In this document: positions 14,408 through 40,201 of the stretch, piece by piece | Layout of the letters: each line of letters opens with the position of its first letter | How positions within the stretch are numbered: position 1 is the first letter of the stretch | From: a virus | Lineage: Duplodnaviria > Caudoviricetes | Length of the DNA stretch: 57,464 nt | Direction: 5' to 3' (one strand) | IMG/VR virus record: IMGVR_UViG_3300044272_001842 | Location: 1 to 57,464 of that record | Notes under the pieces: model-generated | What the model was told of the DNA's origin: nothing | Databases searched by the model: none | The model's input: the letters and a program-made list of their open reading frames with translations, nothing else | Made by a program: the position numbers and the translations under genes

Positions 14408-15192
14408 TGATACCTATTTATATACCTACTAGGGGAAGAATAAACAAACAAACCACATGGGAAAGTATAGGCTCAAAAGCTAGATCAATGGCTGTGTTAG
14501 TTTGCCCAGATAATGAAGTATCTACACATGAAAGTTATGGCAGGAAGACATTGAGCCGAGGTGATATAACAGGTATAAATAATGCACGACAGTTTATACT
14601 AAAACATGCGTTGGAGAACGAACATGATAAAATTATTATTTTGGATGACGATCTTATATTTGGTCGTCGCATATCTGACGTAGCACCTAGTCTACGTAAA
14701 ACCAAACCAGAAGAAATGCATGAGCTATTTGATATTATGAGTGAACGTTTAGATTCATATGTGCATGTTGGTGTAAGCCCAAGACAAATGAATGATAAAC
14801 ATTTTCCTGCTCGTTGGAAGGAATGTATGAGGCAAAATGCTGTTCATGGTATTCAACCAAAAGTATTAAAAAAGGAACATCTACGTTATGACACAGTAGA
14901 CCTCATGGAAGATTATTATATGACACTCAGTTTATTTAAACTAGGCTATCCTAATATTATGATTACTGACTGGACGTGGGATCAACGTGGTACATCAGGT
15001 GCTGTAGGAGGCTGTAGTTCGTACCGTAATGCTGAACTACAAGAACGTGCAAGTAAACAACTTGAAGCTATGTTTCCAGAACATGTGAAGGCTGTTAAAA
15101 AAGAAACTAAAACAGGTTGGGATAATATGAAAGTACGTTGGGATGTACGTGTACAATGGCGAAAGGCGGCAATGGATGGAAACTGTATCTAA
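14407..15192 (+). CDS. GT-A glycosyltransferase (TET-associated / base J glucosyltransferase-like family)
   Basis: IYIPTRGR N-terminus, IIILDDDL (DxD), MEDYYMTL, GGCS. Confidence 0.75.
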   Translation: MIPIYIPTRGRINKQTTWESIGSKARSMAVLVCPDNEVSTHESYGRKTLSRGDITGINNARQFILKHALENEHDKIIILDDDLIFGRRISDVAPSLRKTKPEEMHELFDIMSERLDSYVHVGVSPRQMNDKHFPARWKECMRQNAVHGIQPKVLKKEHLRYDTVDLMEDYYMTLSLFKLGYPNIMITDWTWDQRGTSGAVGGCSSYRNAELQERASKQLEAMFPEHVKAVKKETKTGWDNMKVRWDVRVQWRKAAMDGNCI

Positions 15193-16177
15193 TAACTATC
15201 AAGACCCACCTAACTCTATACAAGTAGAATTTGTTGAGGGCTGTAATTTAGCTTGTTCTTTTTGTGGTATACAGGCGATACGTGATAATGGTGCTGATGG
15301 TCCGAACGATATACACGGTAAAAAGTCTGGTCCATATAAAAACCTGACTATACAAACAGCCGAAGCTATTTGTGACCAAATCAGGGAGGCTAACTGGAAT
15401 CCTCGTATTGAGTTTGCCATGCACGGTGAGCCAACTATGCACCCTTTCTTCGTTGAGATGGTAGGCTTGTTTAGAAAAAAGTTACCAAAAACCTCTCTTA
15501 TGATGACGAGTAATGGAGGAGGGTTGTTAAAAGATACTGAGGAAACAGTCAATAAACTAATGGACGCAGGAATCAATGTTTTGTTTTTAGATAATTATGA
15601 ACGTATAAAAATAGTTGATAAAATTAAAGAACGGTACAATGGTCCGCACCCTGTTTACGAATACCCTAGTGATCGCCAAGCTAACCCACACCGTAGAAGA
15701 AGACATGATGATCATGATATAGTAGTTGGTATGGATCTTACACTCGCAACAAATGGCACTCATGCACAAGTAAGCAATCATGCTGGATCTGCTTTCCCAC
15801 TAAATTATAACCAATCAGGTAAACGATGTGCAAAACCTTTCCGTGAGTTAAGTATACGTTGGGATGGTAGTGTGGCTGTATGTTGTAACGATTGGATTGG
15901 ATGGTATAAGTGTGGTAATTTACATCAAACAAATTTATCGGATATATGGCAAGGTGATGCTTTCCATGCCGCACGTCAAAAATTGTATCACGGACAACGC
16001 AACTTCGGTCCGTGTAACGGTTGTGACAATGTAACACTTCGTAACGGTTTGTTACCAGACCGTATGGGTAGACAAAGTTTACCTGAGCCAGATGCACAAA
16101 CAGAAGAACATATACAAAAAGCTCTTGGCAATGGCACGTATACACCCAAAGTCAAAAAGCATTTTGACTTTATTTAA
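15176..16177 (+). CDS. Radical SAM enzyme with C-terminal SPASM/twitch domain
   Basis: CNLACSFC (CX3CX2C), HGEPTMHP, TSNG, CAKPF...DGSVAVCCND...GNL...PCNGC; likely start METVSN at 15176. Confidence 0.9.
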   Translation: METVSNNYQDPPNSIQVEFVEGCNLACSFCGIQAIRDNGADGPNDIHGKKSGPYKNLTIQTAEAICDQIREANWNPRIEFAMHGEPTMHPFFVEMVGLFRKKLPKTSLMMTSNGGGLLKDTEETVNKLMDAGINVLFLDNYERIKIVDKIKERYNGPHPVYEYPSDRQANPHRRRRHDDHDIVVGMDLTLATNGTHAQVSNHAGSAFPLNYNQSGKRCAKPFRELSIRWDGSVAVCCNDWIGWYKCGNLHQTNLSDIWQGDAFHAARQKLYHGQRNFGPCNGCDNVTLRNGLLPDRMGRQSLPEPDAQTEEHIQKALGNGTYTPKVKKHFDFI

Positions 16178-16278: not shown

Positions 16279-17283
16279 ATGGCAACATTTAATAGCACTA
16301 TTGTGAGGGGTGCTCATACTATCACAGCTAGAAATGTCAGTGATGCTCTCTGGCTTGCAAAACAAAAATTAGAAAATAGTGGTACAAAGGTTGAAACAAG
16401 AAATGGTAGGGCTATTGAGTTAAGAGAGCCTATAGCTATTGTATATAATCAACCTATGGAGCGAGTATTATTCTACCCTGAACGTGATGCTAACCCTATT
16501 TTCCATTTTATGGAAAGCTTATGGATGTTAGCAGGACGGCATGATGTTGAGTGGATTGCTAAGTTCAACAAACGTATGGCAGAGTATAGTGATAACGGTA
16601 AACAACTTCAAGGTGCGTATGGCTATAGATGGCGCAAATACTTTCATACCGATCAGTTAGTAAAAGTAATTTATAGGCTACGCACATACGAAAATGATAG
16701 ACGAACTGTTTTAACAATGTGGGATGCTGAGGAAGATTTGCGGTTGGATAATGATTGTAAAGATCATCCTTGTAACACTCATATATATTTTAGTATCCGT
16801 GATAGAACATTAGATATGACAGTATGCAATCGTAGTAATGATATGATATGGGGAGCGATGGGTGCTAATGCTGTGCATATGTCAATCTTACAAGAGTATG
16901 TAGCCGCTAGAGTCAATGCCAAAGTAGGTATCTATACTCAGTTTAGTAATAATCTACATGCCTATTTAGACACCCTCAAAACTTTAAAAAATATGCAACC
17001 TGATTATAATTCTTATGGGTCACGTGGTATTTATCCTTCACGCATCGTAACTAGAGCAACTTCCTTTATAGAAGAGCTAGAGTTGTTTATGGAAGACCCC
17101 ATGAAAAAACATCCATATAGCAATAAAATATTTCCAGAGTTAGCTCAACCTATGTGTAGAGTTTGGGAAGCTTGGAAACAAAAAGAAATATTTTTAGCAT
17201 TAGATTTATGTAAAGAAATAGTTCCTGATGATTGGCATATAGCTGTACATGAGTGGTTAGAAAGAAGAGTGAACAATGGATAA
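16279..17283 (+). CDS. Thymidylate-synthase-fold enzyme, probable dUMP hydroxymethylase
   Basis: RDANPIFHFMESLWMLAG, GAYGYRWR, catalytic PCN, RSNDMIWGAMGAN (Asn at the uracil-specificity position), NNLHAY. Confidence 0.82.
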   Translation: MATFNSTIVRGAHTITARNVSDALWLAKQKLENSGTKVETRNGRAIELREPIAIVYNQPMERVLFYPERDANPIFHFMESLWMLAGRHDVEWIAKFNKRMAEYSDNGKQLQGAYGYRWRKYFHTDQLVKVIYRLRTYENDRRTVLTMWDAEEDLRLDNDCKDHPCNTHIYFSIRDRTLDMTVCNRSNDMIWGAMGANAVHMSILQEYVAARVNAKVGIYTQFSNNLHAYLDTLKTLKNMQPDYNSYGSRGIYPSRIVTRATSFIEELELFMEDPMKKHPYSNKIFPELAQPMCRVWEAWKQKEIFLALDLCKEIVPDDWHIAVHEWLERRVNNG

Positions 17284-17741: not shown

Positions 17742-19629
17742 GTGGGTAATGCCAGATGGCTACCCTGATATATCGGAAGCACGTGAAGTAGCCATAGACC
17801 TTGAAACAAGAGACCCTAACCTTAAATCTCTAGGGAGTGGGTGGGCTAGGAAAGATGGTCACGTGATTGGTATAGCTGTAGCAGTAGAAGGTAGTTCATG
17901 GTACTTCCCCATACGACATGAAAACGGCAGTAATTTAGATGCAAAGCAAACACTTCGGTGGCTTGCTTCTGTCTGTTCTGTAGAACGAGATTACATAATG
18001 CACAATGCAATGTACGACCTCGGATGGTTATGGGCAGAAAACATAGAAGTAAAAGGTCGTGTTGTTGATACTATGATTGTTGGTGCATTGCTTGATGAAA
18101 ACAGATTTAGTTACGCATTGAATGCACTTGGTAAAGATTATTTAAATGAACGTAAGAGTGAAAAAGAGTTATATGAAGCCGCAGAATCATTTGGGGTAAA
18201 TGCTAAGTCAGAAATGTGGAAGCTCCCTGCACATTTTGTCGGTCAATATGCTGAGCAAGATGCGGCATTGACACTTAGATTATGGAATAATTTCAAAGGC
18301 TTAATCGTTAAAGAAGATATAGCTAACATATTTGATTTAGAAATAAATGTTCTTAAAGTGGTTTTTGAAATGCGTAAGAAAGGAGTGCGTGTAGATATAG
18401 CTAAAGCTGAGGAACTAAAAGAACAATTAGAAAAACAAGAGCAAGAAGTATTGTCCGCTGTTGGTGGTGGTGATATAGATATATGGGCGGCATCAAGTAT
18501 AGCTAAAGCATTTGATAAACAGGGGTTACGATATCCAAAAACAGAAAAAACTAAAGCTCCTAGTTTTACTAAAAACTTTCTGGCTAATCATGAACATGCT
18601 CTTCCAAAAGCAGTAGTAAGAGCTCGTGAACTTAATAAAGCACGTACGACTTTTATAGATACTATACTAAAACACAATCATAATGGGCGCATACATGCTG
18701 AAGCACATAGCCTCCGTAGTGATGAAGGTGGCACAGTCACAGGTCGTTTTAGTTATAGTAACCCGAACTTACAGCAAGTTCCCGCTCGTAATGCTGAAAT
18801 AGGTCCAATGATTCGCGGATTGTTTTTACCAGAACAAGGTGAGTTGTGGGGTGCATTTGATTACAGTAGCCAAGAACCACGACTTGTTGTTCATTATGCG
18901 AGTTTGTTAAAGTTAGATGGCGCACAAGCTTTTGCTGATCAATATAATATAGATGCTAACACAGACTTTCATCAGATGGCGGCTGATATAGTGGGTGTAC
19001 CTCGTAAACAAGCTAAAGATATAAACTTAGGATTATTCTATGGCATGGGTAAGAACAAACTCGCAGAGCAGTTAGGTTTAGATTATGAAGATGCTAAAGA
19101 ACTATTTGCAGAGTATCATGGAAAAGTACCCTTTGTCCAACAACTCTCTGAGTATGTAGTAAATCGTGCTTCTAAAAAAGGAGCTATACGCACTCTGTTA
19201 GGTAGGCGATGTAGGTTTGATAAGTGGGAACCAAATGCTTATGGAACTTATAAACCCATGAGTCATGCTGATGCACTAGCAGAACATGGTCCAGCTATCA
19301 AACGTGCTTTCACTTATAAAGCTTTGAATAGATTAATACAGGGTAGTGCGGCTGATCAAACAAAAGCCGCTATGGTCGCATTGTATAAGGAAGGCATTAC
19401 ACCACTGATACAAGTTCATGATGAGTTAGATATATCTGTGGCTGAGCCAGAGCTGGGTAAGAAAATACAAGAAATTATGGAAACGTGTGTGGATATGCAG
19501 ATACCTAGTATTGTTGATGCAGAGTTTGGTCCAAGCTGGGGTGAAGCAAAAAAGACATTTAGTGATAAACCTTGGAGTAGAGGAGTAAAAGATGGCAGAA
19601 CAAAAATGCAAGACAACACCAAACATTAA
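17707..19629 (+). CDS. polA: Family A DNA polymerase with 3'-5' exonuclease
   Basis: Exo motifs DLET, HNAMYD, YAEQD; TGRFS, PNLQQ, DYSSQEPR (A), RKQAKDINLGLFYG (B, Leu at the 762-equivalent), QVHDEL (C). Confidence 0.96.
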   Translation: MMQFPLFTPPTEWVMPDGYPDISEAREVAIDLETRDPNLKSLGSGWARKDGHVIGIAVAVEGSSWYFPIRHENGSNLDAKQTLRWLASVCSVERDYIMHNAMYDLGWLWAENIEVKGRVVDTMIVGALLDENRFSYALNALGKDYLNERKSEKELYEAAESFGVNAKSEMWKLPAHFVGQYAEQDAALTLRLWNNFKGLIVKEDIANIFDLEINVLKVVFEMRKKGVRVDIAKAEELKEQLEKQEQEVLSAVGGGDIDIWAASSIAKAFDKQGLRYPKTEKTKAPSFTKNFLANHEHALPKAVVRARELNKARTTFIDTILKHNHNGRIHAEAHSLRSDEGGTVTGRFSYSNPNLQQVPARNAEIGPMIRGLFLPEQGELWGAFDYSSQEPRLVVHYASLLKLDGAQAFADQYNIDANTDFHQMAADIVGVPRKQAKDINLGLFYGMGKNKLAEQLGLDYEDAKELFAEYHGKVPFVQQLSEYVVNRASKKGAIRTLLGRRCRFDKWEPNAYGTYKPMSHADALAEHGPAIKRAFTYKALNRLIQGSAADQTKAAMVALYKEGITPLIQVHDELDISVAEPELGKKIQEIMETCVDMQIPSIVDAEFGPSWGEAKKTFSDKPWSRGVKDGRTKMQDNTKH

Positions 19630-20113
19630 AACTTTAATGACAGCATGGGACGCACAGTTCTTAATTAGATATCATACTGTTCCATTACAAACAGAGAGGC
19701 AAACCGTGGGAGCTCATTCATATGCAGTAAGTGTTCTATTAAATCAACTTTGGCCTGATAGTAGTAAACAACTCATTTTATCAGCACTTTACCACGATGT
19801 AGCTGAAGTCATATTAGGTGATATCCCTGCTACTGCTAAATGGGGATACCCAGAGTTAAGAAAAGCTTTTGAAAAAGCTGAAACACAAGTAATGAAAAGT
19901 TTAGAGTTAGATTTTGTTTTAACTAAAAAAGAAAAAGACCGATTGAAAATGGCTGACATGTTAGAGTTGGTGATGTATTGTAATCGGCACTCTTCGTTGC
20001 CACAAATGAAAATGATACGAGATGCTGGAAACGACTACTTATTAGAAAATTTTATTAATAATAAAGACTTTGAACCTGTAGCTAGTTTGCTAAGACATTT
20101 AGGTTTGGATTAA
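19592..20113 (+). CDS. HD-domain deoxynucleotidase (YfbR-like)
   Basis: RYH...TVGAHS...ALYHDVAEVILGDIP...KMADMLE. Confidence 0.85.
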   Translation: MAEQKCKTTPNIKTLMTAWDAQFLIRYHTVPLQTERQTVGAHSYAVSVLLNQLWPDSSKQLILSALYHDVAEVILGDIPATAKWGYPELRKAFEKAETQVMKSLELDFVLTKKEKDRLKMADMLELVMYCNRHSSLPQMKMIRDAGNDYLLENFINNKDFEPVASLLRHLGLD

Positions 20114-21371: not shown

Positions 21372-21613
21372 AACCTTTGTGGGAAATCTATAAGGTAAAA
21401 ACTACCACTAACGAAGTTCACTGGATATTAGATGGACAACTCGTTAAATCACCCATCGTATTTTATGGGTTAGAAAATTTACATATCTTCATGGAATCAT
21501 TTCATGAGATTAATAAAGTGCATACTCCGACTAAAGTCCGGTCGGGGGATGCATCAACACCAAAGCACCCATATGATAGGGATGATCAATATTGGGAGGA
21601 GACACAATCATGA
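21368..21613 (+). CDS. Hypothetical protein
   Basis: AAGGAG RBS; ATGA overlaps at both ends. Confidence 0.65.
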   Translation: MKPLWEIYKVKTTTNEVHWILDGQLVKSPIVFYGLENLHIFMESFHEINKVHTPTKVRSGDASTPKHPYDRDDQYWEETQS

Positions 21614-21939
21614 TGGATGGACACAAAAGATTAATGCTTGAAAAACAAAAACTTGATGAGCTTGCCGCTGAGTCTACAAGTATGAAAGACTTCGCTAGTA
21701 AGTTAGGTTTCACATATATAACTGCTAGGAATATTGCTGAGTTATACGGTGTGACCGTTCCGGATGGTAGAGTAGGTGTAACTAAAAGCAATCAAGTTGC
21801 CCGAAACGCAGATATTTATAATCTTAGACAAATTCATGGTTTGAGTTATTCTGCTATCGGTAAAAAATATGGTATTACCAGACAGCGAGCGCATGGTATT
21901 TATAAAGCAGAGCACAAAAAACTTGCACTCACCATGTAA
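21610..21939 (+). CDS. HTH DNA-binding protein (sigma70 region-4-like)
   Basis: GLSYSAIGKKYGITRQRAHGI. Confidence 0.7.
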   Translation: MMDGHKRLMLEKQKLDELAAESTSMKDFASKLGFTYITARNIAELYGVTVPDGRVGVTKSNQVARNADIYNLRQIHGLSYSAIGKKYGITRQRAHGIYKAEHKKLALTM

Positions 21940-23869: not shown

Positions 23870-24145
23870 ATGAAAGAAAATACATATCATCAAAAACATT
23901 ATACCTTTGGTGAGTGGGTAACACACATGGGTCGGGAGTCTTGGCTACCTGAGTGTCCAACAATACTTCCCGCAGACTTAGCAGATAGTCGCGACTGGTC
24001 GCTAATTGGTTGGTCAAAAGTATGCCCCGAACTTAGCATTTATGAGGCTAAGTTAAATGGCTATCACTATATTATCAAACAATTTAACGGTGGTGATTGT
24101 ACATGGGATGTCACACGTATGCCACTTATGGATTCGGAGGTTTAA
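23870..24145 (+). CDS. Hypothetical protein
   Basis: AAGGAG RBS; TATAAT upstream. Confidence 0.65.
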   Translation: MKENTYHQKHYTFGEWVTHMGRESWLPECPTILPADLADSRDWSLIGWSKVCPELSIYEAKLNGYHYIIKQFNGGDCTWDVTRMPLMDSEV

Positions 24146-24146
24146 A

Positions 24147-24515
24147 ATGAAAGAAAATATTATTGAAACATTTGCCGATGTATGTGCAACGTATGAGTTT
24201 ATGGGCAACCCTCCACTCGTTACTGAGCATACCTATCATCAAGAGATATTAGGGTACAGTCATAACTGGACACATGAGCTTACCCTTGTAAGGATTGAAA
24301 AACCTATAGATGATGTAGCACGACACCCTAAAACAGAGTTGTACTTATTGATGCACCACATGATTCACAATGTCACACGTGCCCTCTCCCATCAACATTC
24401 TATACGGATTGAGTGTACGGATAGTGCAGATGCAGATGATTTATTTCTATATGTACATGAGTTTGCTAACGACTTCCCATATACTCATCACTCAGCTGTG
24501 GAGTTTGCAGAATGA
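24147..24515 (+). CDS. Hypothetical His-rich protein
   Basis: GGAGG RBS before MKENIIE. Confidence 0.6.
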   Translation: MKENIIETFADVCATYEFMGNPPLVTEHTYHQEILGYSHNWTHELTLVRIEKPIDDVARHPKTELYLLMHHMIHNVTRALSHQHSIRIECTDSADADDLFLYVHEFANDFPYTHHSAVEFAE

Positions 24516-24654
24516 TAGTGTTTGCAATCATAGGTGTACTTGTCATGCTCTGCTTTATAATGTTGTCAAGATGAACAAGTAAGACACCCTTATTACACAT
24601 CTTACTATATATTATACTTAGGCAATACTGCCACAAATCTAAATGGAGGTCTAA

Positions 24655-24891
24655 ATGGGTAACATAATCAACTACCACTTAACAATCGCTAAAGAGTTAC
24701 GCTTAAATGAGTGGACTAAAAAACTCGGGCAACAACATTTCAGTGTTCCTAACACTCCCACAACAATATGTGGGATGCCAATGCTCGGTAATAATTATGC
24801 TTCAGTTTACGGTCAAGAAGATAAAACACCTTGTCCTGAGTGTGAAGAAAATATGGCTTTTCGGCTTGATTGCTTAAACCAAGATATTTAG
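24655..24891 (+). CDS. Hypothetical protein
   Basis: GGAGGT RBS; H...CG...CxxC pattern. Confidence 0.65.
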   Translation: MGNIINYHLTIAKELRLNEWTKKLGQQHFSVPNTPTTICGMPMLGNNYASVYGQEDKTPCPECEENMAFRLDCLNQDI

Positions 24892-24900
24892 GAGGTTAAC

Positions 24901-25305
24901 ATGGGTTTAGATCAAAATGCTTTTATAGGCGTAATAACAGAAAAACGTACCGATCCAGAAACAGGACAAGAGTATGATAAAAAAATTATACAGGAAAGTT
25001 TCTATTGGCGCAAACATGCTCGCCTCCAAGAGTTTATGGAAGATCGGTGGGTGCAAAAAACAGGTAGGACAGCCGTAGAGTTAAACTGTGAAGATATGCG
25101 ACTTACCGAGGAAGATATTAACTTGCTAGAAAAAGCCATACTTGACGGCTACACCGAACATGTTAGTGAGGGTGGTATGTTCTATGGTCACCAATTCCAA
25201 GAGGAGTCGGTAAAAGAATATCGTGAGTATGATTTACAGTTTGTGGAAAGAGCTCGTACGGCAATCGCCGATGGTACACACGTCATATATCACTGTTGGT
25301 GGTAA
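24901..25305 (+). CDS. Conserved-type hypothetical phage protein
   Basis: MGLDQ...YWRKH..LQ...YHCWW pattern; AGGAGGT RBS. Confidence 0.75.
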   Translation: MGLDQNAFIGVITEKRTDPETGQEYDKKIIQESFYWRKHARLQEFMEDRWVQKTGRTAVELNCEDMRLTEEDINLLEKAILDGYTEHVSEGGMFYGHQFQEESVKEYREYDLQFVERARTAIADGTHVIYHCWW

Positions 25306-25320
25306 TCAGTTAAACCCCAA

Positions 25321-25354
25321 AGAGTCATGGTCTACGGATCATGGCTCTCTTTTT
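25321..25354 (+). terminator. Intrinsic terminator ending the early/replication block
   Basis: AGAGTCATGGTC-TACG-GATCATGGCTCT followed by a T run; cUACGg tetraloop. Confidence 0.8.
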
Positions 25355-25453
25355 AGTTTTATATATAGAGTAAGAATGAAATATTGAGTGAAGTGAAACA
25401 AAAGATATTACAATATCTGATATCTAATATCTGAGTATTCAAATATTTCAATA

Positions 25454-25480
25454 CTTTGACTGGCCGCGCGACATTTTACA
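25454..25480 (+). repeat. 27-bp element, inverted copy of 6123-6149, preceded by AATATCTGA repeats
   Basis: 24/27 identity; AATATCTGA at 25412 and 25426 (also at 6171). Confidence 0.85.
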
Positions 25481-25542
25481 CTCTTACTTTGTAATGAGTC
25501 GATTTTTGTTGTAGACTCTATTATAGAAAAGTAGAGTAAATT

Positions 25543-26073
25543 ATGCCGAAAGCAAAAGTCACACATAAAAACTCTTTGGAAGTCGTAGCAAACCCTCGTG
25601 TGGAAACAGGGCTAACTCCTAAACAGGAAAAGTTTGCTATGATTTATGCTACAGAAGACCTAACCCAAACTGAAGCCGCATTACGAGCAGGATACGCTGA
25701 AAGTAATGCCCATGCGATAGCAAGCCGAATGTTAAATGGACGGGACTACCCACAGGTATTAGAAAGAATACGTGTCATTAAAACAGAGTTACAACAAAAG
25801 TTTGAAGTTACTTTTGATGGGCATGTACGGAAACTTGCAGAGATAAGAGACCAAGCTATGCAGAACGGTAACTACTCAGCGGCAGTCACAGCTGAAAAAA
25901 GTAGAGGGCAAGCGGCAGGACTCTACATAGACCGTAAAGAAATACTTACAGGTAAGATAGACCAGATGTCCCGTGAAGAAGTTTTGGTAGAAATAAAACG
26001 TATACAAGAAGAGTTCCCACAGTTACGTGAAGCACTAAGCCCAGCGATTGAAGGCCATGTCAACGAAACCTGA
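25543..26073 (+). CDS. terS: Terminase small subunit
   Basis: LTPKQEKFA..Y......TEAALRAGY..S.A...ASRML HTH; AAVTAE..RG...GLYIDR. Confidence 0.85.
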   Translation: MPKAKVTHKNSLEVVANPRVETGLTPKQEKFAMIYATEDLTQTEAALRAGYAESNAHAIASRMLNGRDYPQVLERIRVIKTELQQKFEVTFDGHVRKLAEIRDQAMQNGNYSAAVTAEKSRGQAAGLYIDRKEILTGKIDQMSREEVLVEIKRIQEEFPQLREALSPAIEGHVNET

Positions 26074-26482
26074 AACTGATTTGTGGCATTCTATCAGGGA
26101 TGGGACAGCCTGTTTTGACGTGCATTGGACACGTGTAGAAGCATGGTCACTTCCTGGAGTACCTGATTTAAACGGATGTATGCAAGGATTGGACTTTTGG
26201 GTTGAACTTAAAGTTCTTACGACAAAGAGCGACAAGAAGTATCCTAAGTGGCGTCCTCACCAAATTGCTTGGCAGAGCTCAAGAACATCGGTTGGTGGAG
26301 TAGTTTGGAACTTGGTTCATCATCTTTCCTCCCACAGACTATTATTTTTGGATGGTCGGAACCTAGCAAAGAGATTGATGGAGGGAGATGAGGGAGTCTA
26401 CGATGGATGGATGGATTACCCGATGGATTATGATGGATGGCGAGCTGTACTAGAACAGGTGACATCACGGCCGAAGTCATAA
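26057..26482 (+). CDS. PD-(D/E)XK nuclease (VRR-NUC / Holliday junction resolvase-like)
   Basis: RVE....GVPDL.......FWVELK....RPHQIAW. Confidence 0.8.
   Translation: MSTKPETDLWHSIRDGTACFDVHWTRVEAWSLPGVPDLNGCMQGLDFWVELKVLTTKSDKKYPKWRPHQIAWQSSRTSVGGVVWNLVHHLSSHRLLFLDGRNLAKRLMEGDEGVYDGWMDYPMDYDGWRAVLEQVTSRPKS
26402..26417 (+). repeat. GATGGATGGATGGATT tract, copy 1
   Basis: Identical 16-mer at 27126-27141. Confidence 0.9.
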
Positions 26483-26544
26483 GACTTCTGGCACGAGGTC
26501 ATATGAAGTCAGCAAACAAAGTTATCATTATGACAACTTAGGTG

Positions 26545-26574
26545 TTTACATTGATATGGTAACTGTGGTATCGT
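26545..26574 (+). promoter_or_regulatory. Sigma70-like promoter of paralog A
   Basis: TTTACA-18-TATCGT with extended TG, followed by the GTGGCA-TG-TGCCAC hairpin. Confidence 0.55.
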
Positions 26575-26628
26575 TAAGTGTGGCATGTGCCACGTTAATC
26601 AACCAACGCTCGTAGAAAGGAGCTCATC

Positions 26629-27084
26629 ATGGCTAAATCAGCTGTTAAAAAAATCGCTACTACCGAAGTTACTTTTCAAGGTATTAAAGATATACCTGAG
26701 GATCGTAAAAAGTTGGGTGTCACTGTTGCTGACATCTTTAAGTTCGTGCAGGAAAATGCTGGTGGTAATCCCAATAATGTTGGTATACGTCCAGTCGCTA
26801 AACTGGTTGACCTTAAACAGGAGCTACCATTTCCTTTTGAAAGTAAGCGTACACTATATGAAGAAGACGGTGCTAAAAAAGCTAGGCTCCGTGGTCTTGT
26901 GGTGTGGCAGTTAATCAACTCTGGTACTAAGCCTATCACCCTTACTGATGTTGACAATGCACATAAGAAAATCAAAGCAAAGAAATATCACGCTTTGTTA
27001 GATGCTCTTAACGGTGGGCAGTCGCCATCAGCCAAAGCAACATGGGGAAATAATTATGTTGAGTTATACGTAATCCCAGCTTAA
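26629..27084 (+). CDS. Hypothetical protein, paralog A
   Basis: AGAAAGGAG RBS; own promoter and terminator; shares collinear motifs with 27454..27978. Confidence 0.85.
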   Translation: MAKSAVKKIATTEVTFQGIKDIPEDRKKLGVTVADIFKFVQENAGGNPNNVGIRPVAKLVDLKQELPFPFESKRTLYEEDGAKKARLRGLVVWQLINSGTKPITLTDVDNAHKKIKAKKYHALLDALNGGQSPSAKATWGNNYVELYVIPA

Positions 27085-27093
27085 CAATCACAA

Positions 27094-27125
27094 GGTGGGT
27101 GGCCGATGGTCACCCATTCTTTTTT
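27094..27125 (+). terminator. Intrinsic terminator after paralog A
   Basis: GGTGGGTGGCC-GAT-GGTCACCCATT followed by T6. Confidence 0.8.
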
Positions 27126-27160
27126 GATGGATGGATGGATTGATGATGAAAGATGATGAT
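27126..27160 (+). repeat. GA-dense GATG/GAT tract, copy 2
   Basis: GATGGATGGATGGATTGATGATGAAAGATGATGAT (10 GA in 35 nt). Confidence 0.9.
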
Positions 27161-27301
27161 TCATATATATGGGCATAGTCACATATATAGTCACCAAATA
27201 AAATCTTTTCTAATGAACTCAAAAGAACTCATACCTATATACAATTTAATATCCGGTGCTATGGTGGTTTTATAACTTAACTATTAACAAGGGAGTTAAT
27301 T

Positions 27302-27364
27302 ATGCTTATGAGCTTTTATTTGTTTAGTGTGATAGTAACAATATTTTTTATTACACTTTTTTAA
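27302..27364 (+). CDS. 20-aa hydrophobic peptide (not in ORF track)
   Basis: MLMSFYLFSVIVTIFFITLF with AAGGGAG RBS. Confidence 0.45.
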   Translation: MLMSFYLFSVIVTIFFITLF

Positions 27365-27372
27365 TTTAGGGG

Positions 27373-27403
27373 TTTACATTAATGTAAATATGTTTATTAT
27401 AAT
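27373..27403 (+). promoter_or_regulatory. Sigma70-like promoter of paralog B with a 16-bp palindrome over the -35 box
   Basis: TTTACATTAATGTAAA palindrome (27373-27388); TATTATAAT -10 region; TGTAGC/GCTACA hairpin at 27407-27424. Confidence 0.65.
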
Positions 27404-27453
27404 AAGTGTAGCAATACCGCTACATTCAACTTTAACCAAAATGGGGTTTAATT

Positions 27454-27978
27454 ATGGTTAATACTTCTAAAAAAGCCGCACTTGCTTTCCAAGGTGCAAA
27501 TGGTATCAAACAGCCTGTAGCCGCTCAAGCTATGGTTGCATTTATCAATGCTAACGGTGGTCAAGCTAACTTAGCTTTATTGCTCAACGCTAATGCCGTT
27601 AAAAACGGTGTTCTGTTTGGTGGTGGCAAGCTATGGTCAGCTATGCAAGTTAGTTCTAAAACTAACGCTATCAGCGCACGTGGTCAAATACTTTGGGCAT
27701 GTGTTAACGGCTTGCCTACAGGTCAAGCGGTCACTAAAGCTAACATTGGTAAGCTTATTAATACTAATGTTCCAACAAGCTTTAAACCTATACCGCTAAC
27801 ACAAATACAGCAAGCTCACGCTGTGTATGGTGCTGGTATTACACATAATACTAGCGTTTCCGCTGGCGGTACAGCTAACCAAAATGCTTTACTTGCTATA
27901 CTTAATGGCGGTTTTGGTATTAGTAACCAAACTGTTAGCACGTATGGTAACGCATACGGCACTATTGTGGCGGTATAA
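27454..27978 (+). CDS. Hypothetical protein, paralog B; no Asp or Glu, gene free of the GA dinucleotide
   Basis: 174-aa ORF with promoter, GGGGT RBS and terminator; similar to 26629..27084. Confidence 0.85.
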   Translation: MVNTSKKAALAFQGANGIKQPVAAQAMVAFINANGGQANLALLLNANAVKNGVLFGGGKLWSAMQVSSKTNAISARGQILWACVNGLPTGQAVTKANIGKLINTNVPTSFKPIPLTQIQQAHAVYGAGITHNTSVSAGGTANQNALLAILNGGFGISNQTVSTYGNAYGTIVAV

Positions 27979-27986
27979 CCCCAACA

Positions 27987-28023
27987 GTTAGCCAAGTGCC
28001 AAAAAGGTACTTGGCTAACCTTT
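27987..28023 (+). terminator. Stem-loop / probable terminator after paralog B
   Basis: GTTAGCCAAGTGCC-AAAAA-GGTACTTGGCTAAC, short T run. Confidence 0.7.
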
Positions 28024-28215
28024 AAAACGCTAGTACGGCTGTAAAAAATGGCAACCCCCCCTCAAATGCGACGAACATGTACAAGCACAGCGCAGTACAC
28101 GGTTTTCCAGAAATCGTTACCACTCAGATAATTTTTGGACATACCCACCCCCCTTTTTTGAAATATGAGTCATAGGTTCATTGCCCTTTGAAAATTTTTA
28201 TATTATTCTGATACT

Positions 28216-28401
28216 ATGAAGGATGATTTAGTTAATTTTGGTGTAAGCCGTTCGAGTAATGGCGAAGTATCTTTATCATTTTATTATACGAATGGTGCAG
28301 AGCGACATTTTGTTTTAGGTGATGATGATATTATATCTTTAATAGCGGCTTTATTAGCGGCACGTAATGAAGAGATGGGTGAATGGCAGACGTACCATTA
28401 A
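28216..28401 (+). CDS. Hypothetical protein
   Basis: 61-aa ORF overlapping the terL start. Confidence 0.5.
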   Translation: MKDDLVNFGVSRSSNGEVSLSFYYTNGAERHFVLGDDDIISLIAALLAARNEEMGEWQTYH

Positions 28402-29852
28402 ACATTCCCGAAGATGTGTTGCGCCAATATGCAATGTTATTAGAGAAGCAGAAAAAACTTATCTCGAGTGATCGCGCACGAGCAGACTTTATGTCGTATA
28501 CTAAAAGTGTATGGCCTGAGTTTATTGAGGGTAAGCACCATAAAATTATGGGCGAGAAGTTTAATGCCTTGTCAAAAGGCAAAATTAAACGGTTGATTGT
28601 GAATATGCCGCCCAGACATACAAAGTCAGAGTTTGCCAGTTATTTATTACCCAGTTGGTTGATGGGACTTAATCCAAAGTTAAAGATAATACAGGCTACG
28701 CATACAGGTGAGTTAGCCGTGCGTTTTGGACGTAAGGTACGTAATTTGATGAACAATGCCGATTACTCTCAGATCTTTCCAGAAGTAAAATTACGGCAAG
28801 ATAGTAGTGCGGCAGGAAGATGGGAGACCCACGCAGGAGGAGAATATTTTGCGGCTGGTGTGGGCGGAGCAATAACAGGACGTGGTGCAGACCTTATGAT
28901 AATTGACGACCCACATTCTGAACAAGATGCATTATCTCCAGCGGCATTAGAAAATGCGTATGAGTGGTATACTAGTGGTCCACGGCAACGACTCCAACCT
29001 GGAGGTGCGATTGTTATTGTGATGACACGTTGGTCAGAAATAGATCTAACGGGAAAATTATTAAAACAGCAATCACGTGATTTGTTAGCAGATCAGTGGG
29101 AAGTAGTTGAGTTTCCAGCTTTAATAGATGATGATAAAGTATTATGGCCGGAGTTTTGGCAGAAAGAAGAATTATTAAAAGTGAAAGCTTCTTTGTCGGT
29201 AGGCAAGTGGGAAGCACAATGGCAACAAAACCCTACATCAGAAACGAGTGCTATACTTAAACGTGATTGGTGGCGGCAGTGGGAAAAAGAAGATATACCA
29301 CCTTTACAGTATGTCATGCAAAGTTATGATACAGCATTTAGTAAACAGACAAATGCTGATTATAGTGCGATAACAACATGGGGTGTTTTTTACCCAGAAG
29401 AAGGTGGTCCACCAAATATTATTTTAGTTGATGCACGACGTGGACGGTGGGACTTTCCAGAACTACGACGTATTGCGTTAGAAGAATATGAGTATTGGGA
29501 TCCAGAATGTGTCCTGATTGAGGCAAAAGCGAGTGGTATGCCCCTTACCCAAGAACTAAGAAGTATGGGTATACCTGTGCAAAATTATAGCCCAAGTAGA
29601 GGTAATGATAAATTTACTCGTGTGAACTCCATTGCGCCATTACTAGAAAGTGGGTTAGTATGGGCTCCAGATACTCGGTGGGCAGAAGAAGTTATTGAAG
29701 AGTGTGCCGCTTTTCCAAGTGGTGAGAATGATGACTTTGTAGATACATGCACACAGGCTCTAAGAAGATTTCGCGAAGGCGGTTTTATACAACACCCAGA
29801 GGATTATGATGACCATGTTGATGCACCCCCAAGACAAGCAGTATATTACTAA
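28383..29852 (+). CDS. terL: Terminase large subunit
   Basis: MPPRHTKS (Walker A), GRGADLMIIDDP (Walker B), VMTRW, SYDTAF, IEAKASG, NDDFVD nuclease motif. Confidence 0.95.
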   Translation: MADVPLNIPEDVLRQYAMLLEKQKKLISSDRARADFMSYTKSVWPEFIEGKHHKIMGEKFNALSKGKIKRLIVNMPPRHTKSEFASYLLPSWLMGLNPKLKIIQATHTGELAVRFGRKVRNLMNNADYSQIFPEVKLRQDSSAAGRWETHAGGEYFAAGVGGAITGRGADLMIIDDPHSEQDALSPAALENAYEWYTSGPRQRLQPGGAIVIVMTRWSEIDLTGKLLKQQSRDLLADQWEVVEFPALIDDDKVLWPEFWQKEELLKVKASLSVGKWEAQWQQNPTSETSAILKRDWWRQWEKEDIPPLQYVMQSYDTAFSKQTNADYSAITTWGVFYPEEGGPPNIILVDARRGRWDFPELRRIALEEYEYWDPECVLIEAKASGMPLTQELRSMGIPVQNYSPSRGNDKFTRVNSIAPLLESGLVWAPDTRWAEEVIEECAAFPSGENDDFVDTCTQALRRFREGGFIQHPEDYDDHVDAPPRQAVYY

Positions 29853-29950: not shown

Positions 29951-32347
29951 ATGGCTAGAAAACCTAATCCATTTAACAATATAGAGCGTGAATTTACATT
30001 AGTCGGGCAGAAGTTGCCCGATGATCCGTTGGAGGTTGAATTACCTACTGAAGAAGAGCAAATGGCTTTTGAAGGTATGGAAATGACACGTAATGAAGAT
30101 GGCTCAGTGGAGTTTGGGGAATCAGAAGATGATGTAAAACCCGACGTAGGGTTTATGGGTAATTTAGCTGATAGTATAGATGATGATGAATTAGCCGCTA
30201 TAGGTTCTATGATATTAGAAAAAGTAGAGGAAGATAAATCTTCAAGACGCGAATGGGTAGATACATATACAAAAGGGTTGAACTTACTTGGGGTACGGTA
30301 TGAAAATCGTACAGAACCTTTTAATGGTGCTACAGGTGTAACACATCCTATGTTGAACGAAGCAGTGAGCCAGTTCCAAAGCCAAGCATATAAAGAATTA
30401 TTACCTCCAAACGGACCTGTACGTACACAAGTGATCGGTGATACTACCCCCGAACTGGAAAAACAGGCAGATCGTATTAAAGATTTTATGAATTACCAAA
30501 TAGTTCACGAGATGGATGAGTACGATTATGAGTTTGACCAAATGTTATACTACTTAGGACTATGTGGTAGTGCATTTAAAAAAGTTTATAATGATCCACA
30601 GCTAGGTAGACCAGTCAGTAAGTTTGTTATGGCTGAAGATATACTTGTGCCTTTTACTGCAACGGACTTACAAAGTGCAGATCGGGTAACACATATCATA
30701 AAATACAATAAAAATGAGTTACGCAAGTTACAAGTAAGTGGTTTTTACCGTGATGTTGAGGTTATGGCTGGTGAAGGCGATACAAGTGAGCTAGAACAAA
30801 CAAAAGAAGAACTATCTGGTATTGAAAAAGCGGGAGCGAATGAACAAATTACACTTTTTGAGTGCCATTGTTACTTAGATTTGGAAAATTTCCCTGATTT
30901 AGGCGCAAATAACGAGCCTACAGGTATACAACTACCCTATATTGTGACTGTTGCCGAAGAAACAGGCGAGATTTTGTCAATTTACCGTAATTTTGATGAA
31001 AATGATCCTTTAAAACGTAAAAAACCTTACTTTGTACACTACCCATTTACTCCTGGATTAGGGTTTTATGGTAATGGTTTGATACATTTATTAGGTAATT
31101 TGTCAAGAACGGCTACTGCAAACTTACGACAGCTCATTGATGCAGGAACATTATCTAATATGCCAGCGGGATTTAAAGCTCGTGGCTTGCGTATCCGTGA
31201 TGATGACCAACCGCTACAACCAGGAGAATGGAGAGATGTAGATGTGGTAGGAGCTGAATTACGAAGCTCACTTATGCCTCTGCCGTATAAAGAACCTAGT
31301 GGTACGTTATTCCAATTATTAGGTTTTGTTGTCAATGCGGCACAAAAGTTTGTTGGCACGACAGATATCGGTACAGGTAATATACAAAATACTGAGATGC
31401 CAGTTGGTACAACGGTAGCTCTTATGGAACGTGGTAGTAGGATAATGTCTGCGGTGCATAAACGATTGTACAATGGATTAAAACAAGAGTTTAAGTTATT
31501 AGCAAATCTTTTTGCCATGGATCCAAGTGATTATCCATATAATGTCTCAGGCAATCAGCCAGGATTAAAAGCTAAAGATTTTGACGGTCGTATTGATATT
31601 ATACCAGTAGCTAATCCTAATATATTTAGTATGTCACAACGTGTGACACTCGCACAGGAACAACTTAAATTAGCACAAGCTAATCCACAAATGCATAATC
31701 AGTATGAAACTTTGCGTAGAATGTATACAGCACTTGGGGTTGATAATATTGAACAAATATTACCACCACCACAGCAAGCGATGCCGATGCCACCAGTGCG
31801 TGAAAACGGTATGTTGCAATTAGCTGTGATTGGTAAACAACAGTTAAAAGCTTTTCCAGAACAAAATCATGATGCACACATATCTACACATTTAAGTTAT
31901 ATGACGAGTATGATTGTGAAAGCAAATCCTGCGGCATTACAAATTTTGCAAACGCATATATTTGAACATATTAGTTTAAAAGCACAAGCTATAATACAGC
32001 AAGAGTTGATGAGAACAGGAGAACAGGGGCAACAATTACCTCCGCAACTTGTTGAAAGCCGTATGGCAGAAATAGAAAGCCAACTAATATCAGACTATTT
32101 ACAAAAAGAAAACGAAGTGTTGGGTATGCAAAATAAAGACCCACTGGTTGACCTTAAAGCAAAAGAGCTACAATTACGTGAACAGGAGCAAATGCAAAAT
32201 GCGATGCAAGATCAAATGGAGTTACAGTTTGATAAACAGAAAGCCGCAGAGCAAGCCGCTATACAACGGGAACGTATTGGTAGCACAGAGGATATTGCAC
32301 AAATGCGAGCACGTATAGCGTTAGAAAGAACTAGAGGCAGAGGCTAA
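29951..32347 (+). CDS. Portal protein
   Basis: 798 aa directly after terL; HPMLNEAV.QFQ, GSAFKKVY, GFYGNGL; Gln-rich coiled-coil C-terminus as in P22-type portals. Confidence 0.85.
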   Translation: MARKPNPFNNIEREFTLVGQKLPDDPLEVELPTEEEQMAFEGMEMTRNEDGSVEFGESEDDVKPDVGFMGNLADSIDDDELAAIGSMILEKVEEDKSSRREWVDTYTKGLNLLGVRYENRTEPFNGATGVTHPMLNEAVSQFQSQAYKELLPPNGPVRTQVIGDTTPELEKQADRIKDFMNYQIVHEMDEYDYEFDQMLYYLGLCGSAFKKVYNDPQLGRPVSKFVMAEDILVPFTATDLQSADRVTHIIKYNKNELRKLQVSGFYRDVEVMAGEGDTSELEQTKEELSGIEKAGANEQITLFECHCYLDLENFPDLGANNEPTGIQLPYIVTVAEETGEILSIYRNFDENDPLKRKKPYFVHYPFTPGLGFYGNGLIHLLGNLSRTATANLRQLIDAGTLSNMPAGFKARGLRIRDDDQPLQPGEWRDVDVVGAELRSSLMPLPYKEPSGTLFQLLGFVVNAAQKFVGTTDIGTGNIQNTEMPVGTTVALMERGSRIMSAVHKRLYNGLKQEFKLLANLFAMDPSDYPYNVSGNQPGLKAKDFDGRIDIIPVANPNIFSMSQRVTLAQEQLKLAQANPQMHNQYETLRRMYTALGVDNIEQILPPPQQAMPMPPVRENGMLQLAVIGKQQLKAFPEQNHDAHISTHLSYMTSMIVKANPAALQILQTHIFEHISLKAQAIIQQELMRTGEQGQQLPPQLVESRMAEIESQLISDYLQKENEVLGMQNKDPLVDLKAKELQLREQEQMQNAMQDQMELQFDKQKAAEQAAIQRERIGSTEDIAQMRARIALERTRGRG

Positions 32348-38340: not shown

Positions 38341-38633
38341 TGGCTATGTCTAGAAGTAATATGCCAAAACAAATTAGCAAAGCACCTTCTAGCAAAAAGA
38401 AGAAATCTAAAAAACGCAATATACCGCAAAAGTATTTAGCTGGTCTTAGTGCGTCTGAACGTGCTAAACGTAAAAAAGAAATAGAGAGAAATGCAAAAAA
38501 ATCTGCAAAGGATCCTTCAGCATATGTTTTCCCTAGTGATTATAAGAGTACTGGAGTGCGGAGAAAAACCAAAGAATCCGTTCATACTAAAAAATTTCGT
38601 AAAATGTTTGGTGGAAAGGGCAAGAATAAATGA
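38340..38633 (+). CDS. Small basic protein
   Basis: 97 aa, Lys-rich. Confidence 0.7.
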   Translation: MAMSRSNMPKQISKAPSSKKKKSKKRNIPQKYLAGLSASERAKRKKEIERNAKKSAKDPSAYVFPSDYKSTGVRRKTKESVHTKKFRKMFGGKGKNK

Positions 38634-38764
38634 AAAAATTATCTGCAAAGCAAAAAAAGTTAGCGGCTTTTGCCGCTCCTCGCAACAAGATCACACGTGC
38701 GGATATCATTACTGCGGCTAAGAAAAAAGCTAAAAAGAATAATGGCAAAAAGAAAAGACCCTAA
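38630..38764 (+). CDS. 44-aa basic protein (not in ORF track)
   Basis: MKKLSAKQKKLAAFAAPRNKITRADIITAAKKK... Confidence 0.6.
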   Translation: MKKLSAKQKKLAAFAAPRNKITRADIITAAKKKAKKNNGKKKRP

Positions 38765-39035
38765 AGTAGGCACAGGCAAAAAACCTAAAGGTTCAGGCAG
38801 AAGGTTATATACCGATGAGAACCCTAAAGATACTGTCCCCATCAAGTTTGCAACACCAACTGATGCTAGAAAAACTGTCGCACGTGTTAAAAAAGTTAAA
38901 AAACCGTTTGCAAGAAAAATACAAATACTGACTGTAGGAGAGCAAAGAGCAAAGGTTATGGGTAAAAAAGAGGTTGCTAATATTTTCCGTAAAGGTAAAG
39001 ATAGTATACGTAGACAGGAGGGCAAAATAAAATGA
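38742..39035 (+). CDS. Small basic protein
   Basis: MAKRKDPKVGTGKKPKGSGRRLYTDENPKDTV. Confidence 0.7.
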   Translation: MAKRKDPKVGTGKKPKGSGRRLYTDENPKDTVPIKFATPTDARKTVARVKKVKKPFARKIQILTVGEQRAKVMGKKEVANIFRKGKDSIRRQEGKIK

Positions 39036-39301
39036 CTTTATCAGCCGCGACGAAAAAGTCTCTATCTAAAAAAGCAGAGGCCGCTAGAAAAAAAGGTAAA
39101 AAAGTTACCGCAGGACAATTAGCACGAGTTTACAAAAAAGGATTAGCCGCTTATCGGACAGGACATCGTCCAGGAGCAAGTCCAAGTCAGTGGGCTATGG
39201 CTAGAGTAAATAGCGTACTGACTGGAGGTAAAGCCGCAAAAGTTGATGCACACATATTTGGTAAAGGTAAAAAGAAGAAAGCAGAAACAAAGAAAAAATG
39301 A
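39032..39301 (+). CDS. Small basic protein (DUF5824-like)
   Basis: VYKKGLAAYRTGHRPGASPSQWAMARVNS. Confidence 0.65.
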   Translation: MTLSAATKKSLSKKAEAARKKGKKVTAGQLARVYKKGLAAYRTGHRPGASPSQWAMARVNSVLTGGKAAKVDAHIFGKGKKKKAETKKK

Positions 39302-39976: not shown

Positions 39977-40201
39977 ATGGCTATGCATAATAAAAAAGGG
40001 AAGGCAAATGGAGGTCGCAAAAAAATGATGGGTGGCGGCAACATGAAGAAAAAAGGAATGGCTAAAGGCGGTAGAGCTAAAATGATGGGTGGCGGTAATA
40101 TGAAGAAGAAAGGTCGCTCTAAAATGATGGGTGGTGGTAGCATGAATATGCGTAAAAAAGGTATGTCAAAAGGTGGTGCAGTAAGAGGTCCAAATAGTTA
40201 A
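39977..40201 (+). CDS. Low-complexity Lys/Gly/Met protein with KMMGGG repeats
   Basis: Three KMMGGG units; AAGGAG RBS; no acidic residues. Confidence 0.7.
   Translation: MAMHNKKGKANGGRKKMMGGGNMKKKGMAKGGRAKMMGGGNMKKKGRSKMMGGGSMNMRKKGMSKGGAVRGPNS

Follow-up and report, generated by a model that had tools for sequence, protein, structure and literature searches.

Base J (glucosyl-hydroxymethyluracil) is found at the transcription-termination regions of kinetoplastids and in their telomeric repeats. The pac site of phage P1 is made of clustered hexamers containing GATC, and its cleavage is gated by Dam methylation. Phage T7 carries short repeat arrays, the heptamers SRL and SRR (short repeats left and right), beside its terminal repeats; promoter early stem-loops (PeSLs) of T4-type phages and boundary sequences of lambdoid phages stand at cassette boundaries, and tetranucleotide contingency repeats are known from Haemophilus and Neisseria. 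This study concerns a GATG microsatellite, here called tract 2, and a stretch devoid of the dinucleotide GA, the GA-free island, which follow one another between the terminase genes terS and terL of the virus record IMGVR_UViG_3300044272_001842. The window, meaning the whole stretch of DNA analysed, is this linear IMG/VR record of 57,464 bp, with 38.5% G+C and a CheckV completeness of 98%. The island was found to be more remarkable than tract 2 itself. Judging from its sequence, tract 2 may be a modification-dense, strand-oriented barrier that backs a terminator, a reading which we regard as possible rather than probable.

The island and the array bear on a question that concerns this class of phages, namely which thymidines become hypermodified and why only some of them do. 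Lee 2018 stated that the exact hypermodification motifs were unknown, and later work infers TG or TC from restriction patterns. Passages of PMC6449724 place thymidine hypermodification at TG or TC in M6, ViI and phiW-14 by restriction mapping, and passages of PMC13458397 describe that of phage 15599 as occurring mostly at TG and less at TC. Such modification genes are reported in PMC9599517 for clades V, VIII and IX of the uncultivated HTVC023P-type pelagiphages; its text, supplements apart, contains none of the words "tandem", "microsatellite" or "dinucleotide". Our search of the literature on dinucleotide-, GA- or TC-free stretches and on pelagiphage hypermodification returned no description of the arrays or of the island.

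Results

Tract 2 opens a junction module between terS and terL

Almost every gene of the window is carried by the + strand, and the order around the array is terS, a nuclease-like open reading frame (ORF), paralog 1, a terminator, a tiny hydrophobic ORF, paralog 2, terL and portal. Tract 2 occupies 27126-27160 (+) and consists of (GATG)3-GATT-GATG followed by GATGAAAGATGATGA (Tandem Repeats Finder, period 4, 5.0 copies). It is non-coding, and its first base directly follows the T-run of the last terminator on the terS side, a terminator-like structure at 27094-27125 (+; hairpin 27094-27118, then CTTTTTT; -17.6 kcal/mol, z-score (z) -3.1). About 18 nt after the array lies a 26-bp palindrome of alternating purines and pyrimidines, TATATATGGG-CATAGT-CACATATATA (27164-27189; 10-nt arms with one mismatch, 6-nt loop), which is unique in the window, and two GAACTCA repeats, 10 nt apart, follow at 27215-27231 (+). 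Tract 2 thereby opens a junction module, in the order array, palindrome, TGAnTCA-type repeats, ahead of a GA-free transcription unit. Placed between the terminator and the palindrome, it lies 227 nt upstream of the next predicted -35 hexamer and belongs neither to a reading frame nor to a promoter spacer. The palindrome itself is a candidate operator, cleavage site or cruciform.

The 16-mer GATGGATGGATGGATT lies at 26402-26417, in a region here called tract 1, and again at 27126-27141, both times on the + strand, with no other copy on either strand of the window. With up to two mismatches, three matches were obtained, the third overlapping the second; 100 dinucleotide-preserving shuffles gave 0.03 such matches on average, and 0 of 100 reached three. 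Among 35-nt windows (mean 2.22 GA, standard deviation 1.33), the highest count is 10 from 27126, followed by 9 from 26373 and then 8, and among 74-nt windows (mean 4.7, standard deviation 2.05) the highest is 17 from 26369, followed by 13. The initial annotation had reported the 16-mer at both places, the first at the end of the nuclease ORF, with about 17 GA in about 74 nt there and 10 GA in 35 nt right after the terminator. Each of these observations was reproduced, and the two counts proved to be the highest of the window at their respective lengths. The heptamers that it had listed were likewise located, GAAGTCA at 26473-26479 and 26505-26511, GAGGTCA at 26495-26501 and GAACTCA at 27215-27221 and 27225-27231, and the complete absence of GA that it had noticed nearby corresponds to the 739 nt of the island. 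The two tracts nevertheless differ in kind, tract 1 being coding and tract 2 a non-coding microsatellite.

Conservation was assessed among relatives identified by terL, of which 481 were found, 80 were kept and 77 of those were examined for exact arrays; related loci are labelled L with a number, and six near-complete genomes of the clade G000-G005. Exact (GATG) arrays of at least three units are present at 23 of the 77 loci (terL 82-100% identical), amounting to 27 arrays of 12-35 nt. All 27 are on the coding strand, and the CATC orientation was found at none of the 77 loci. The arrays adjoin the T-run of five different terminator hairpin sequences or sit within about 12 nt of it, and those of L040 and of an insert in L005 overlap or come after a stop codon. 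Each of the six near-complete genomes contains 0-2 arrays; these are all on the + strand, and only one of them falls outside the terS-terL interval. In the entire viral collection, (GATG) stretches of at least five units number 56, about 15 of them from this clade judging by their flanks, and 12 of these long stretches have a GA-free run of at least 400 nt within the next 2 kb. The whole tract 2 stretch is kept at its position in the close relatives L005-L007. A lack of conservation in relatives, which the initial annotation had named as grounds for rejecting its reading, therefore does not apply to tract 2.

Given that position, strand and purity remain constant while length and neighbours vary, the array is likely to be under selection, or at least under strong maintenance by slippage. 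In a rival explanation, the array would be a by-product of mutation and recombination, a microsatellite prone to slippage that is retained where cassettes meet in a hypervariable terS-terL gap and provides at most microhomology for shuffling; the identical 16-mer would then merely be the same repeat unit. Copy number differs among relatives, which have 3 to 9 units. An extra gene of about 480 nt stands in L005 between the junction module and the island (about 1010-1490 of alignment A1, an insert relative to window 27250), and this cassette is flanked by repeats of one leader, AACTATTAACA..GG.G, and ends in a third GATG array with a hairpin. In the window, arrays bracket the paralog 1 cassette, and L040, in which paralog 1 precedes the nuclease, has a single array. 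Upstream of the island there is a roughly 8-fold enrichment of strong tandem repeats of varied units, including CCCAAA, CTCGGTT, TCTCG, GATCATTGCC and GTCCCCAT among others, with one within 600 nt at 27 of 49 loci, and relatives without the PF18723 modification protein carry other arrays in the same gap. What slippage accounts for less readily is that the arrays are uninterrupted and stay in place despite changing flanking genes and terminators, that their orientation is constant in 27 of 27, that they start tight against the T-run and that they are constantly linked to the palindrome. Moreover, the first array of the window is not positionally homologous to that of L040, so that a simple array-to-array exchange is not shown. 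On balance, we consider this explanation somewhat unlikely.

The palindrome was also compared among relatives, which retain its symmetry while the arm sequences change, as in L015 (CATGTATGTAC-GTCA-GTACATACATG). Of 28 distinct array sites, 14 have an inverted repeat (arms of 10 nt or longer) no more than 95 nt away, versus 71 of 1500 control windows. The place of the GAACTCA pair is taken in relatives by repeats of TGAGTCA, TGATTCA or TGACTCA or by a GACTTC..GAAGTCA hairpin. An array, a palindrome and TGAnTCA repeats of this sort could form part of a pac or cos site, or of a replication origin, with the repeats as binding or phasing elements and the modification state possibly being read, as Dam methylation is at P1 pac. 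The genome has only this one module, placed between terS and terL; its symmetric element keeps its symmetry while the arms vary, and repeats flank the palindrome on both sides. At the same site, distant relatives have clusters of GATC: 16-17 per 800 nt upstream of the island in L063, L064 and L067 and 7-10 in six others, where about 1-3 are expected (4.6 in L049). Some contigs begin at the tracts, that of L042 right after the palindrome and that of L083 inside a microsatellite. At contig level, however, ends do not pile up at the site, the X1 DNA contig is unbroken through 24000-28093 and contig starts in relatives are scattered. The site lies about 1.05 kb downstream of terS, neither in it nor adjoining it, the 4-bp period fits no helical phasing, and a place directly behind terminators would be unexpected for pac. 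We regard a packaging function, which the initial annotation had put forward as an alternative, or an origin function as unlikely. GATC clusters ahead of the island were noted in L063-L070, L075, L077, L080 and L081; those of L065 and L070 reach 7 within about 70 nt.

The module also has the appearance of a regulatory hub, with a palindrome and heptamer repeats spaced by 10 nt, and the array might accordingly be a binding platform, as operator or activator site, for a phage or host regulator of the downstream promoters. A weak match to sigma-70 region 4 or a helix-turn-helix (HTH) domain at 21592-21939 would fit such a role. Against a binding platform of this type, the array varies 3-fold in copy number and stands anywhere between about 100 and 570 nt from the island; the repeat units of more distant relatives are unrelated, and no binding protein was identified. 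We give this idea very little weight.

The GA-free island

The island extends over 27331-28070 and comprises 739 nt without GA, the next longest GA-free run in the window being 113 nt. In the window, GA alone is absent from it; CA and TG are normal, and TC occurs 19 times, 0.73 of its level in the rest of the window. Nearly all relatives for which enough sequence is available, down to 72% identity in terL, have a GA-free run of 600-1200 nt shortly before terL. A GA-free run of 400 nt or more was present in 64 sequences, of which 16 have no TC there, 36 have two or fewer and 9 have ten or more. The GA-free and TC-free runs coincide in five complete relatives, and in most relatives the TC/GA step is missing from both strands over 600-1180 nt. 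Homologues of the island gene, examined at 34 loci, have no GA in 28, no TC in 25 and neither in 25. Lineages that relax the island rule have 8-30 TC and 0-2 GA, the reverse was never seen among the 34 loci, and the window fits the relaxed pattern.

The GA-free run begins about 40 nt upstream of the -35 hexamer of the island gene and ends about 50 nt past its terminator hairpin. As GA and its reverse complement TC are avoided from before the promoter to past the terminator, the rule appears to act on duplex DNA rather than on mRNA. The stricter rule for GA on the coding strand, which keeps TC off the template, points to transcription and suggests that the template strand matters most. If a modification rule specific to TC applies, the island would be a modification-free zone; the link between TC modification and the island is circumstantial. 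HTVC027P and 023Pt_psg01, which have no PF18723, have no island. The broader proposition that every phage with PF18723 has an island was rejected, as phi_M6 has no outlying dinucleotide-free run and L053 and L056 have PF18723 together with a decayed island.

An explanation at the level of RNA was also considered. In this case, (GAUG)n in read-through RNA would be a cleavage or binding cluster for a GA-recognising ribonuclease or RNA-binding protein, to which the GA-free mRNA would be immune. No part of the rule is stricter than the absence of GA from the coding strand, zero tolerance of GA would fit cleavage, and the ribosome-binding site of paralog 2 is GGGG instead of GGAG. The RNA evidence comes from metatranscriptome contigs, which give no transcript ends, strand or expression level, and a lack of RNA cover over parts of the stretch carries no weight. 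A contig of a relative (1131 nt) covers 27141-28274 and thus begins at the end of the 16-mer; its depth of 12.5, compared with 3-6 for other phage pieces in the run, is a weak hint in favour of the barrier reading discussed below, and another short metatranscriptome contig contains the array. Against an RNA target, the island gene is also free of TC at 25 of 34 loci and whole islands are free of both dinucleotides, which points to duplex DNA, and the GA-free run starts before the -35 hexamer and passes the terminator hairpin. A search of 25400-28500 against Rfam (E <= 1) gave no match, and no candidate RNase was identified. This explanation seems very improbable. Sponges of the CsrA type that bind GGA, or targets of the RegB type (GGAG or GGAU), were set aside, since the island lacks any GA and not just GGA.

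Modification genes of the window

A set of pyrimidine-hypermodification genes is located in the replication module. It comprises a PF18723 protein (aGPT-Pplase1, or "HMUDK_hel"; 13514-14407, E 1.7e-50), a TAGT glycosyltransferase (14407-15192; Pfam TAGT, E 4.5e-18, 66.4 bits versus a cut-off of 27.5), a radical-SAM/SPASM enzyme (15143-16177, profile match), a thymidylate-synthase homologue (16279-17283; PHROG 5131, E 1.9e-103; Pfam Thymidylat_synt, E 4.6e-22) and an HD 5'-deoxynucleotidase-like protein (19592-20113, profile match). The thymidylate-synthase homologue could make hydroxymethyl-dUMP, as in the 5-hydroxymethyldeoxyuridine pathway of the thymidine-hypermodifying phages M6, ViI, phiW-14 and SP10; its sequence is compatible with either deoxyuridylate (dUMP) or deoxycytidylate (dCMP) as the substrate. 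Pfam names PF18723 after a 5-hydroxymethyldeoxyuridine (5-hmdU) DNA kinase. The PF18723 protein of the window is 32.5% identical to the phi_M6 ORF 38429-39400, which adjoins the P-loop kinase and is not the kinase itself. PF18723 was present in 9 of 10 related records searched, and the one miss was in a record rated 45% complete.

The strand-symmetric observed/expected ratio of TC/GA is 0.83-0.90 in G000-G005, 0.97-1.02 in 11-kb pieces of two relatives without PF18723 and 1.21 in phi_M6. The lowered ratio of the clade and the TC/GA-free island would be indirect signs of a modified base at TG/TC. Work on phage CAjan reportedly found 7-deazaguanine at a GA motif. For the 7-deazaguanine route, no DpdA-like match was obtained among the 26 ORFs scanned. 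A small protein at 21592-21939 carries the weak sigma-70 region 4/HTH match mentioned above (E 4e-4, below the curated cut-off).

Tract 1 and the nuclease-like ORF

Tract 1 is a GA-dense coding stretch at 26371-26445 (+; 17 GA in 74 nt) that includes the first copy of the 16-mer. It belongs to a small nuclease-like ORF of 144 residues at 26048-26482 (+), which matches PHROG 2165 (E 4.9e-20) over residues 7-103 only and has no Pfam match. A putative PD...ELK nuclease motif was recognised in it by our own reading. The translation ends in ...KRLMEGDEGVYDGWMDYPMDYDGWRAVLEQVTSRPKS, and since the PHROG match stops at residue 103, this C-terminal tail is an extension. The 16-mer is read in frame as GAT GGA TGG ATG GAT T(AC), or DGWMDY, inside Y-D-G-W-M-D-Y, and just the last 27 codons lie downstream of the array. 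Both the GA density and the (GATG)3 run are therefore explained by the codons GAT-GGA-TGG-ATG-GAT of a tail rich in Asp, Glu, Gly, Trp and Met.

The homologous tail of many relatives is YDHRMEWPMDKDGW or ...RLMDGDPTYDHRMEWPMDKDGW..., in which GATGG strings are abundant and the (GATG)3 run is absent. An exact array at this position was found only in the window, in L008 (with L006 and L007) and in L017. A hairpin with GAAGTC/GACTTC arms spans the stop codon of the nuclease (26468-26495, +; -15.3 kcal/mol, z -2.6). In L040, of the 82% group, the gene order is terS, paralog 1 and nuclease, with a single array, and the nuclease ends in ...SGQDGWMD*, reading into the array that precedes the palindrome, which suggests a shared history of tail and array. 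The two 16-mers are not relics of one collinear tandem duplication, a possibility that we rejected because the shared pieces are out of order and unequally spaced, with offsets of 724 nt for the 16-mer, 828 nt for the promoter and 765 nt for the GATTGATG.. stretch.

The paralogs and neighbouring features

Paralog 1 (26629-27084, +; 151 residues) has a normal composition and is preceded by a predicted promoter-like site, TTTACA-18-TATCGT, with a folded 5' stem-loop (26545-26599, +). Paralog 2 (27454-27978, +; 174 residues), the island gene, contains neither Asp nor Glu. It is preceded by the promoter-like site TTTACA-16-TATTAT, with a 5' stem-loop (27373-27426, +; -9.4 kcal/mol, z -4.9), which may alternatively be read, as we do, as TTTACA-18-TATAAT, and it is followed by a strong hairpin (27987-28019, +; -24.1 kcal/mol, z -6.3). 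The two promoters share a direct repeat (AACTTAGGTGTTTACATTGAT in that of paralog 1, AATTTAGGGGTTTACATTAAT in that of paralog 2), and the proteins show a weak likeness over the C-terminal 64 residues (33% identity, E 7e-5). Members of the paralog 2 family have about 170-200 residues, and Asp and Glu are absent from 25 of 29 aligned homologues (42-93% identity to paralog 2).

Neither paralog matched Pfam or PHROG, and neither resembles gp33 of HTVC027P. A tblastn search with paralog 2 against the phage collection gave no match. Its AlphaFold model has a mean predicted local distance difference test (pLDDT) score of 75.8; a Foldseek search with this model against PDB and BFVD returned nothing at E <= 0.001, and the best Z in a wide VIA-align search was 3.8. 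For paralog 1, a search of the ESM Atlas gave no usable match.

The tiny ORF at 27302-27364 (+; 20 residues, MLMSFYLFSVIVTIFFITLF) has its own ribosome-binding site and is conserved in L005-L007. Its product is wholly hydrophobic, and it stands just ahead of the paralog 2 promoter. At the same position, relatives have one to three small membrane-type ORFs, often within the GA/TC-free run.

With regard to the rest of the gap and its surroundings, terS encodes the terminase small subunit (25543-26073, +; PHROG 51, E 1.8e-17; Pfam Terminase_2, E 4.7e-11), terL lies at 28383-29852, after paralog 2, and portal follows terL at 29951-32347. The nearest named relatives by terL (58-64% identity) are the Pelagibacter phages HTVC027P and HTVC023P and two uncultured marine phages. 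A megablast search with 25500-29000 against the phage collection gave no match. Every record looked at is classed in IMG/VR as linear without end repeats. A 1026-residue ORF at 618-3698 has no PHROG match and no Pfam match above the cut-off, and longer tandem repeats occur inside ORFs of the structural region at 39992-40113 (57 nt x2.1) and 48300-48469 (72 nt x2.4).

Discussion

Tract 2 may act on DNA as a strand-oriented barrier that reinforces the terminator and shields the downstream unit, which has its own promoter, from upstream transcription. In (GATG)n, each T of the template strand stands in TC context and each T of the coding strand in TG context, and such a run is the densest possible in TG/TC contexts at 50% A+T. 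If the phage modifies TC, the template strand would carry one bulky base every 4 nt, directly ahead of a stretch without any. This density of TC, together with the position after a terminator and before a TC-less template, makes a barrier, as in the initial annotation, our best single reading of the site, though still less likely than not.

Several observations weigh against a barrier. Tract 1, despite its identical 16-mer, is ordinary coding sequence for an acidic tail. The P-loop 5-hmdU kinase of the M6 gp54 type was looked for by tblastn with the phi_M6 ORF (L088:7854-8417), and the best match in the window had an E value of 1.2, although a divergent kinase would escape such a search; the sole Walker A motif in a plausible gene of the window is that of the helicase at 9672. 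With no P-loop kinase homologue found, the phage may use another chemistry than M6 and ViI, possibly one that yields a glycosylated hydroxymethyl pyrimidine. On average, GA and TC are not enriched in the 150-600 nt before the island (10.5 versus 10.9 per 100 nt, 53 sequences). The 60-nt window densest in GA/TC lay within the 800 nt before the island at 20 of 49 loci, and the same test gave 18 for CA/TG, 22 for GG/CC, 26 for AT and 22 for TA. Neither the flank averages nor these peaks support a coupling of GA/TC density as such to the island across the clade; the feature common to the clade upstream of the island is low complexity, not GA. The dense tract ahead of the island has the opposite orientation, rich in TC on the coding strand, in L050, L051, L055 and L056. 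HTVC027P and 023Pt_psg01, without PF18723 (the only modification family searched among such relatives) or an island, nevertheless have tandem repeats in the terS-terL gap: TGAAGCT x10 and AAGCTTG x5 and x3 in HTVC027P (L001 996-1129, 1888-1924 and 2211-2231), and (GCTC)5.8 in 023Pt_psg01 (L002 2400-2422). In HTVC027P, gap genes gp30, gp33 and gp34 belong to separate temporal expression clusters, according to passages of PMC12753301. Finally, TC on the template that blocked RNA polymerase would hinder the other genes (about 64 GA/kb) on modified DNA, and an intrinsic terminator is already present at the site. The proposal of the initial annotation that both tracts would, if template TC is modified, be densely modified roadblocks or insulators is upheld in part: the conservation and orientation of tract 2, its place behind varied terminators, the presence of modification genes and the published TG/TC context speak for it, while the codon explanation of tract 1 and the density controls do not.

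The barrier reading can be extended into a broader one, in which this clade of abundant marine phages writes a modification map, with a TC mark, possibly a glycosylated hydroxymethyl pyrimidine related to base J, that is dense (one site per 4 nt of template) in arrays closing the upstream operon and excluded, in most relatives from both strands, from the next 0.6-1.2 kb, a "pioneer" unit; we think this quite unlikely. If it were true, a modification-dense stop would be followed by a modification-free gene that the host polymerase reads from fully modified incoming DNA. Such a pioneer unit would be self-contained, with promoter, gene and terminator, and would encode an acid-free paralogue of a neighbouring gene. 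A stretch of 0.6-1.2 kb that avoids TC/GA, together with an array in which every T is in TG or TC, is in any event a natural test object, which could tell whether context sets the modification pattern and whether this pattern controls expression or packaging. If the array is only a slippage-prone junction, it still marks a point of cassette exchange in the terS-terL gap of these relatives of HTVC023P-type pelagiphages.

The site shares features with each of the known systems. As in the contingency repeats of Haemophilus and Neisseria, a perfect 4-nt unit differs in copy number between close relatives; tract 2, in contrast, is outside any reading frame or promoter spacer, and no indel was seen at 26402-26417 or 27126-27145 among the listed rows from the X1 DNA run, in which contigs drop rare variants. 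As with PeSLs, repeated short regulatory sequences flank variable gene cassettes at junctions of insertion or rearrangement, namely at the L005 insert and at the position of paralog 1, but the repeated element is here a microsatellite and not a promoter-hairpin unit. SRL and SRR of T7 resemble it in that very short units are repeated in tandem at a non-coding junction in a podovirus-like genome, a resemblance that extends to the heptamer arrays of HTVC027P, whereas the records looked at are all classed in IMG/VR as linear without end repeats. With P1 pac, the locus has in common a cluster of short repeats with a modifiable motif at a unique site near the terminase genes, and GATC clusters in distant relatives; unlike in P1, the repeats here, tandem tetramers, stand on one side only, and the terS gene does not include the site.

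The comparison with base J is the one that corresponds to the proposed barrier. Differences exist: a hydroxylase of the J-binding protein (JBP) type is absent here because the nucleotide pool would supply the hydroxymethyl group, transcription is by a bacterial polymerase, and an ordinary intrinsic terminator is already at the site. Phage glycosyltransferase-A (GT-A) enzymes encoded next to C5-methyltransferase/5mYOX (TET-type) genes are described, in bioRxiv 2023.12.21.572611, as structural relatives of the base-J glucosyltransferase. The TAGT glycosyltransferase of the window, which lies beside a thymidylate-synthase homologue, may belong to this class, to judge by its Pfam family name. What the two systems would share is a hypermodified pyrimidine, concentrated in short tandem repeats where transcription units end and serving as a stop mark.

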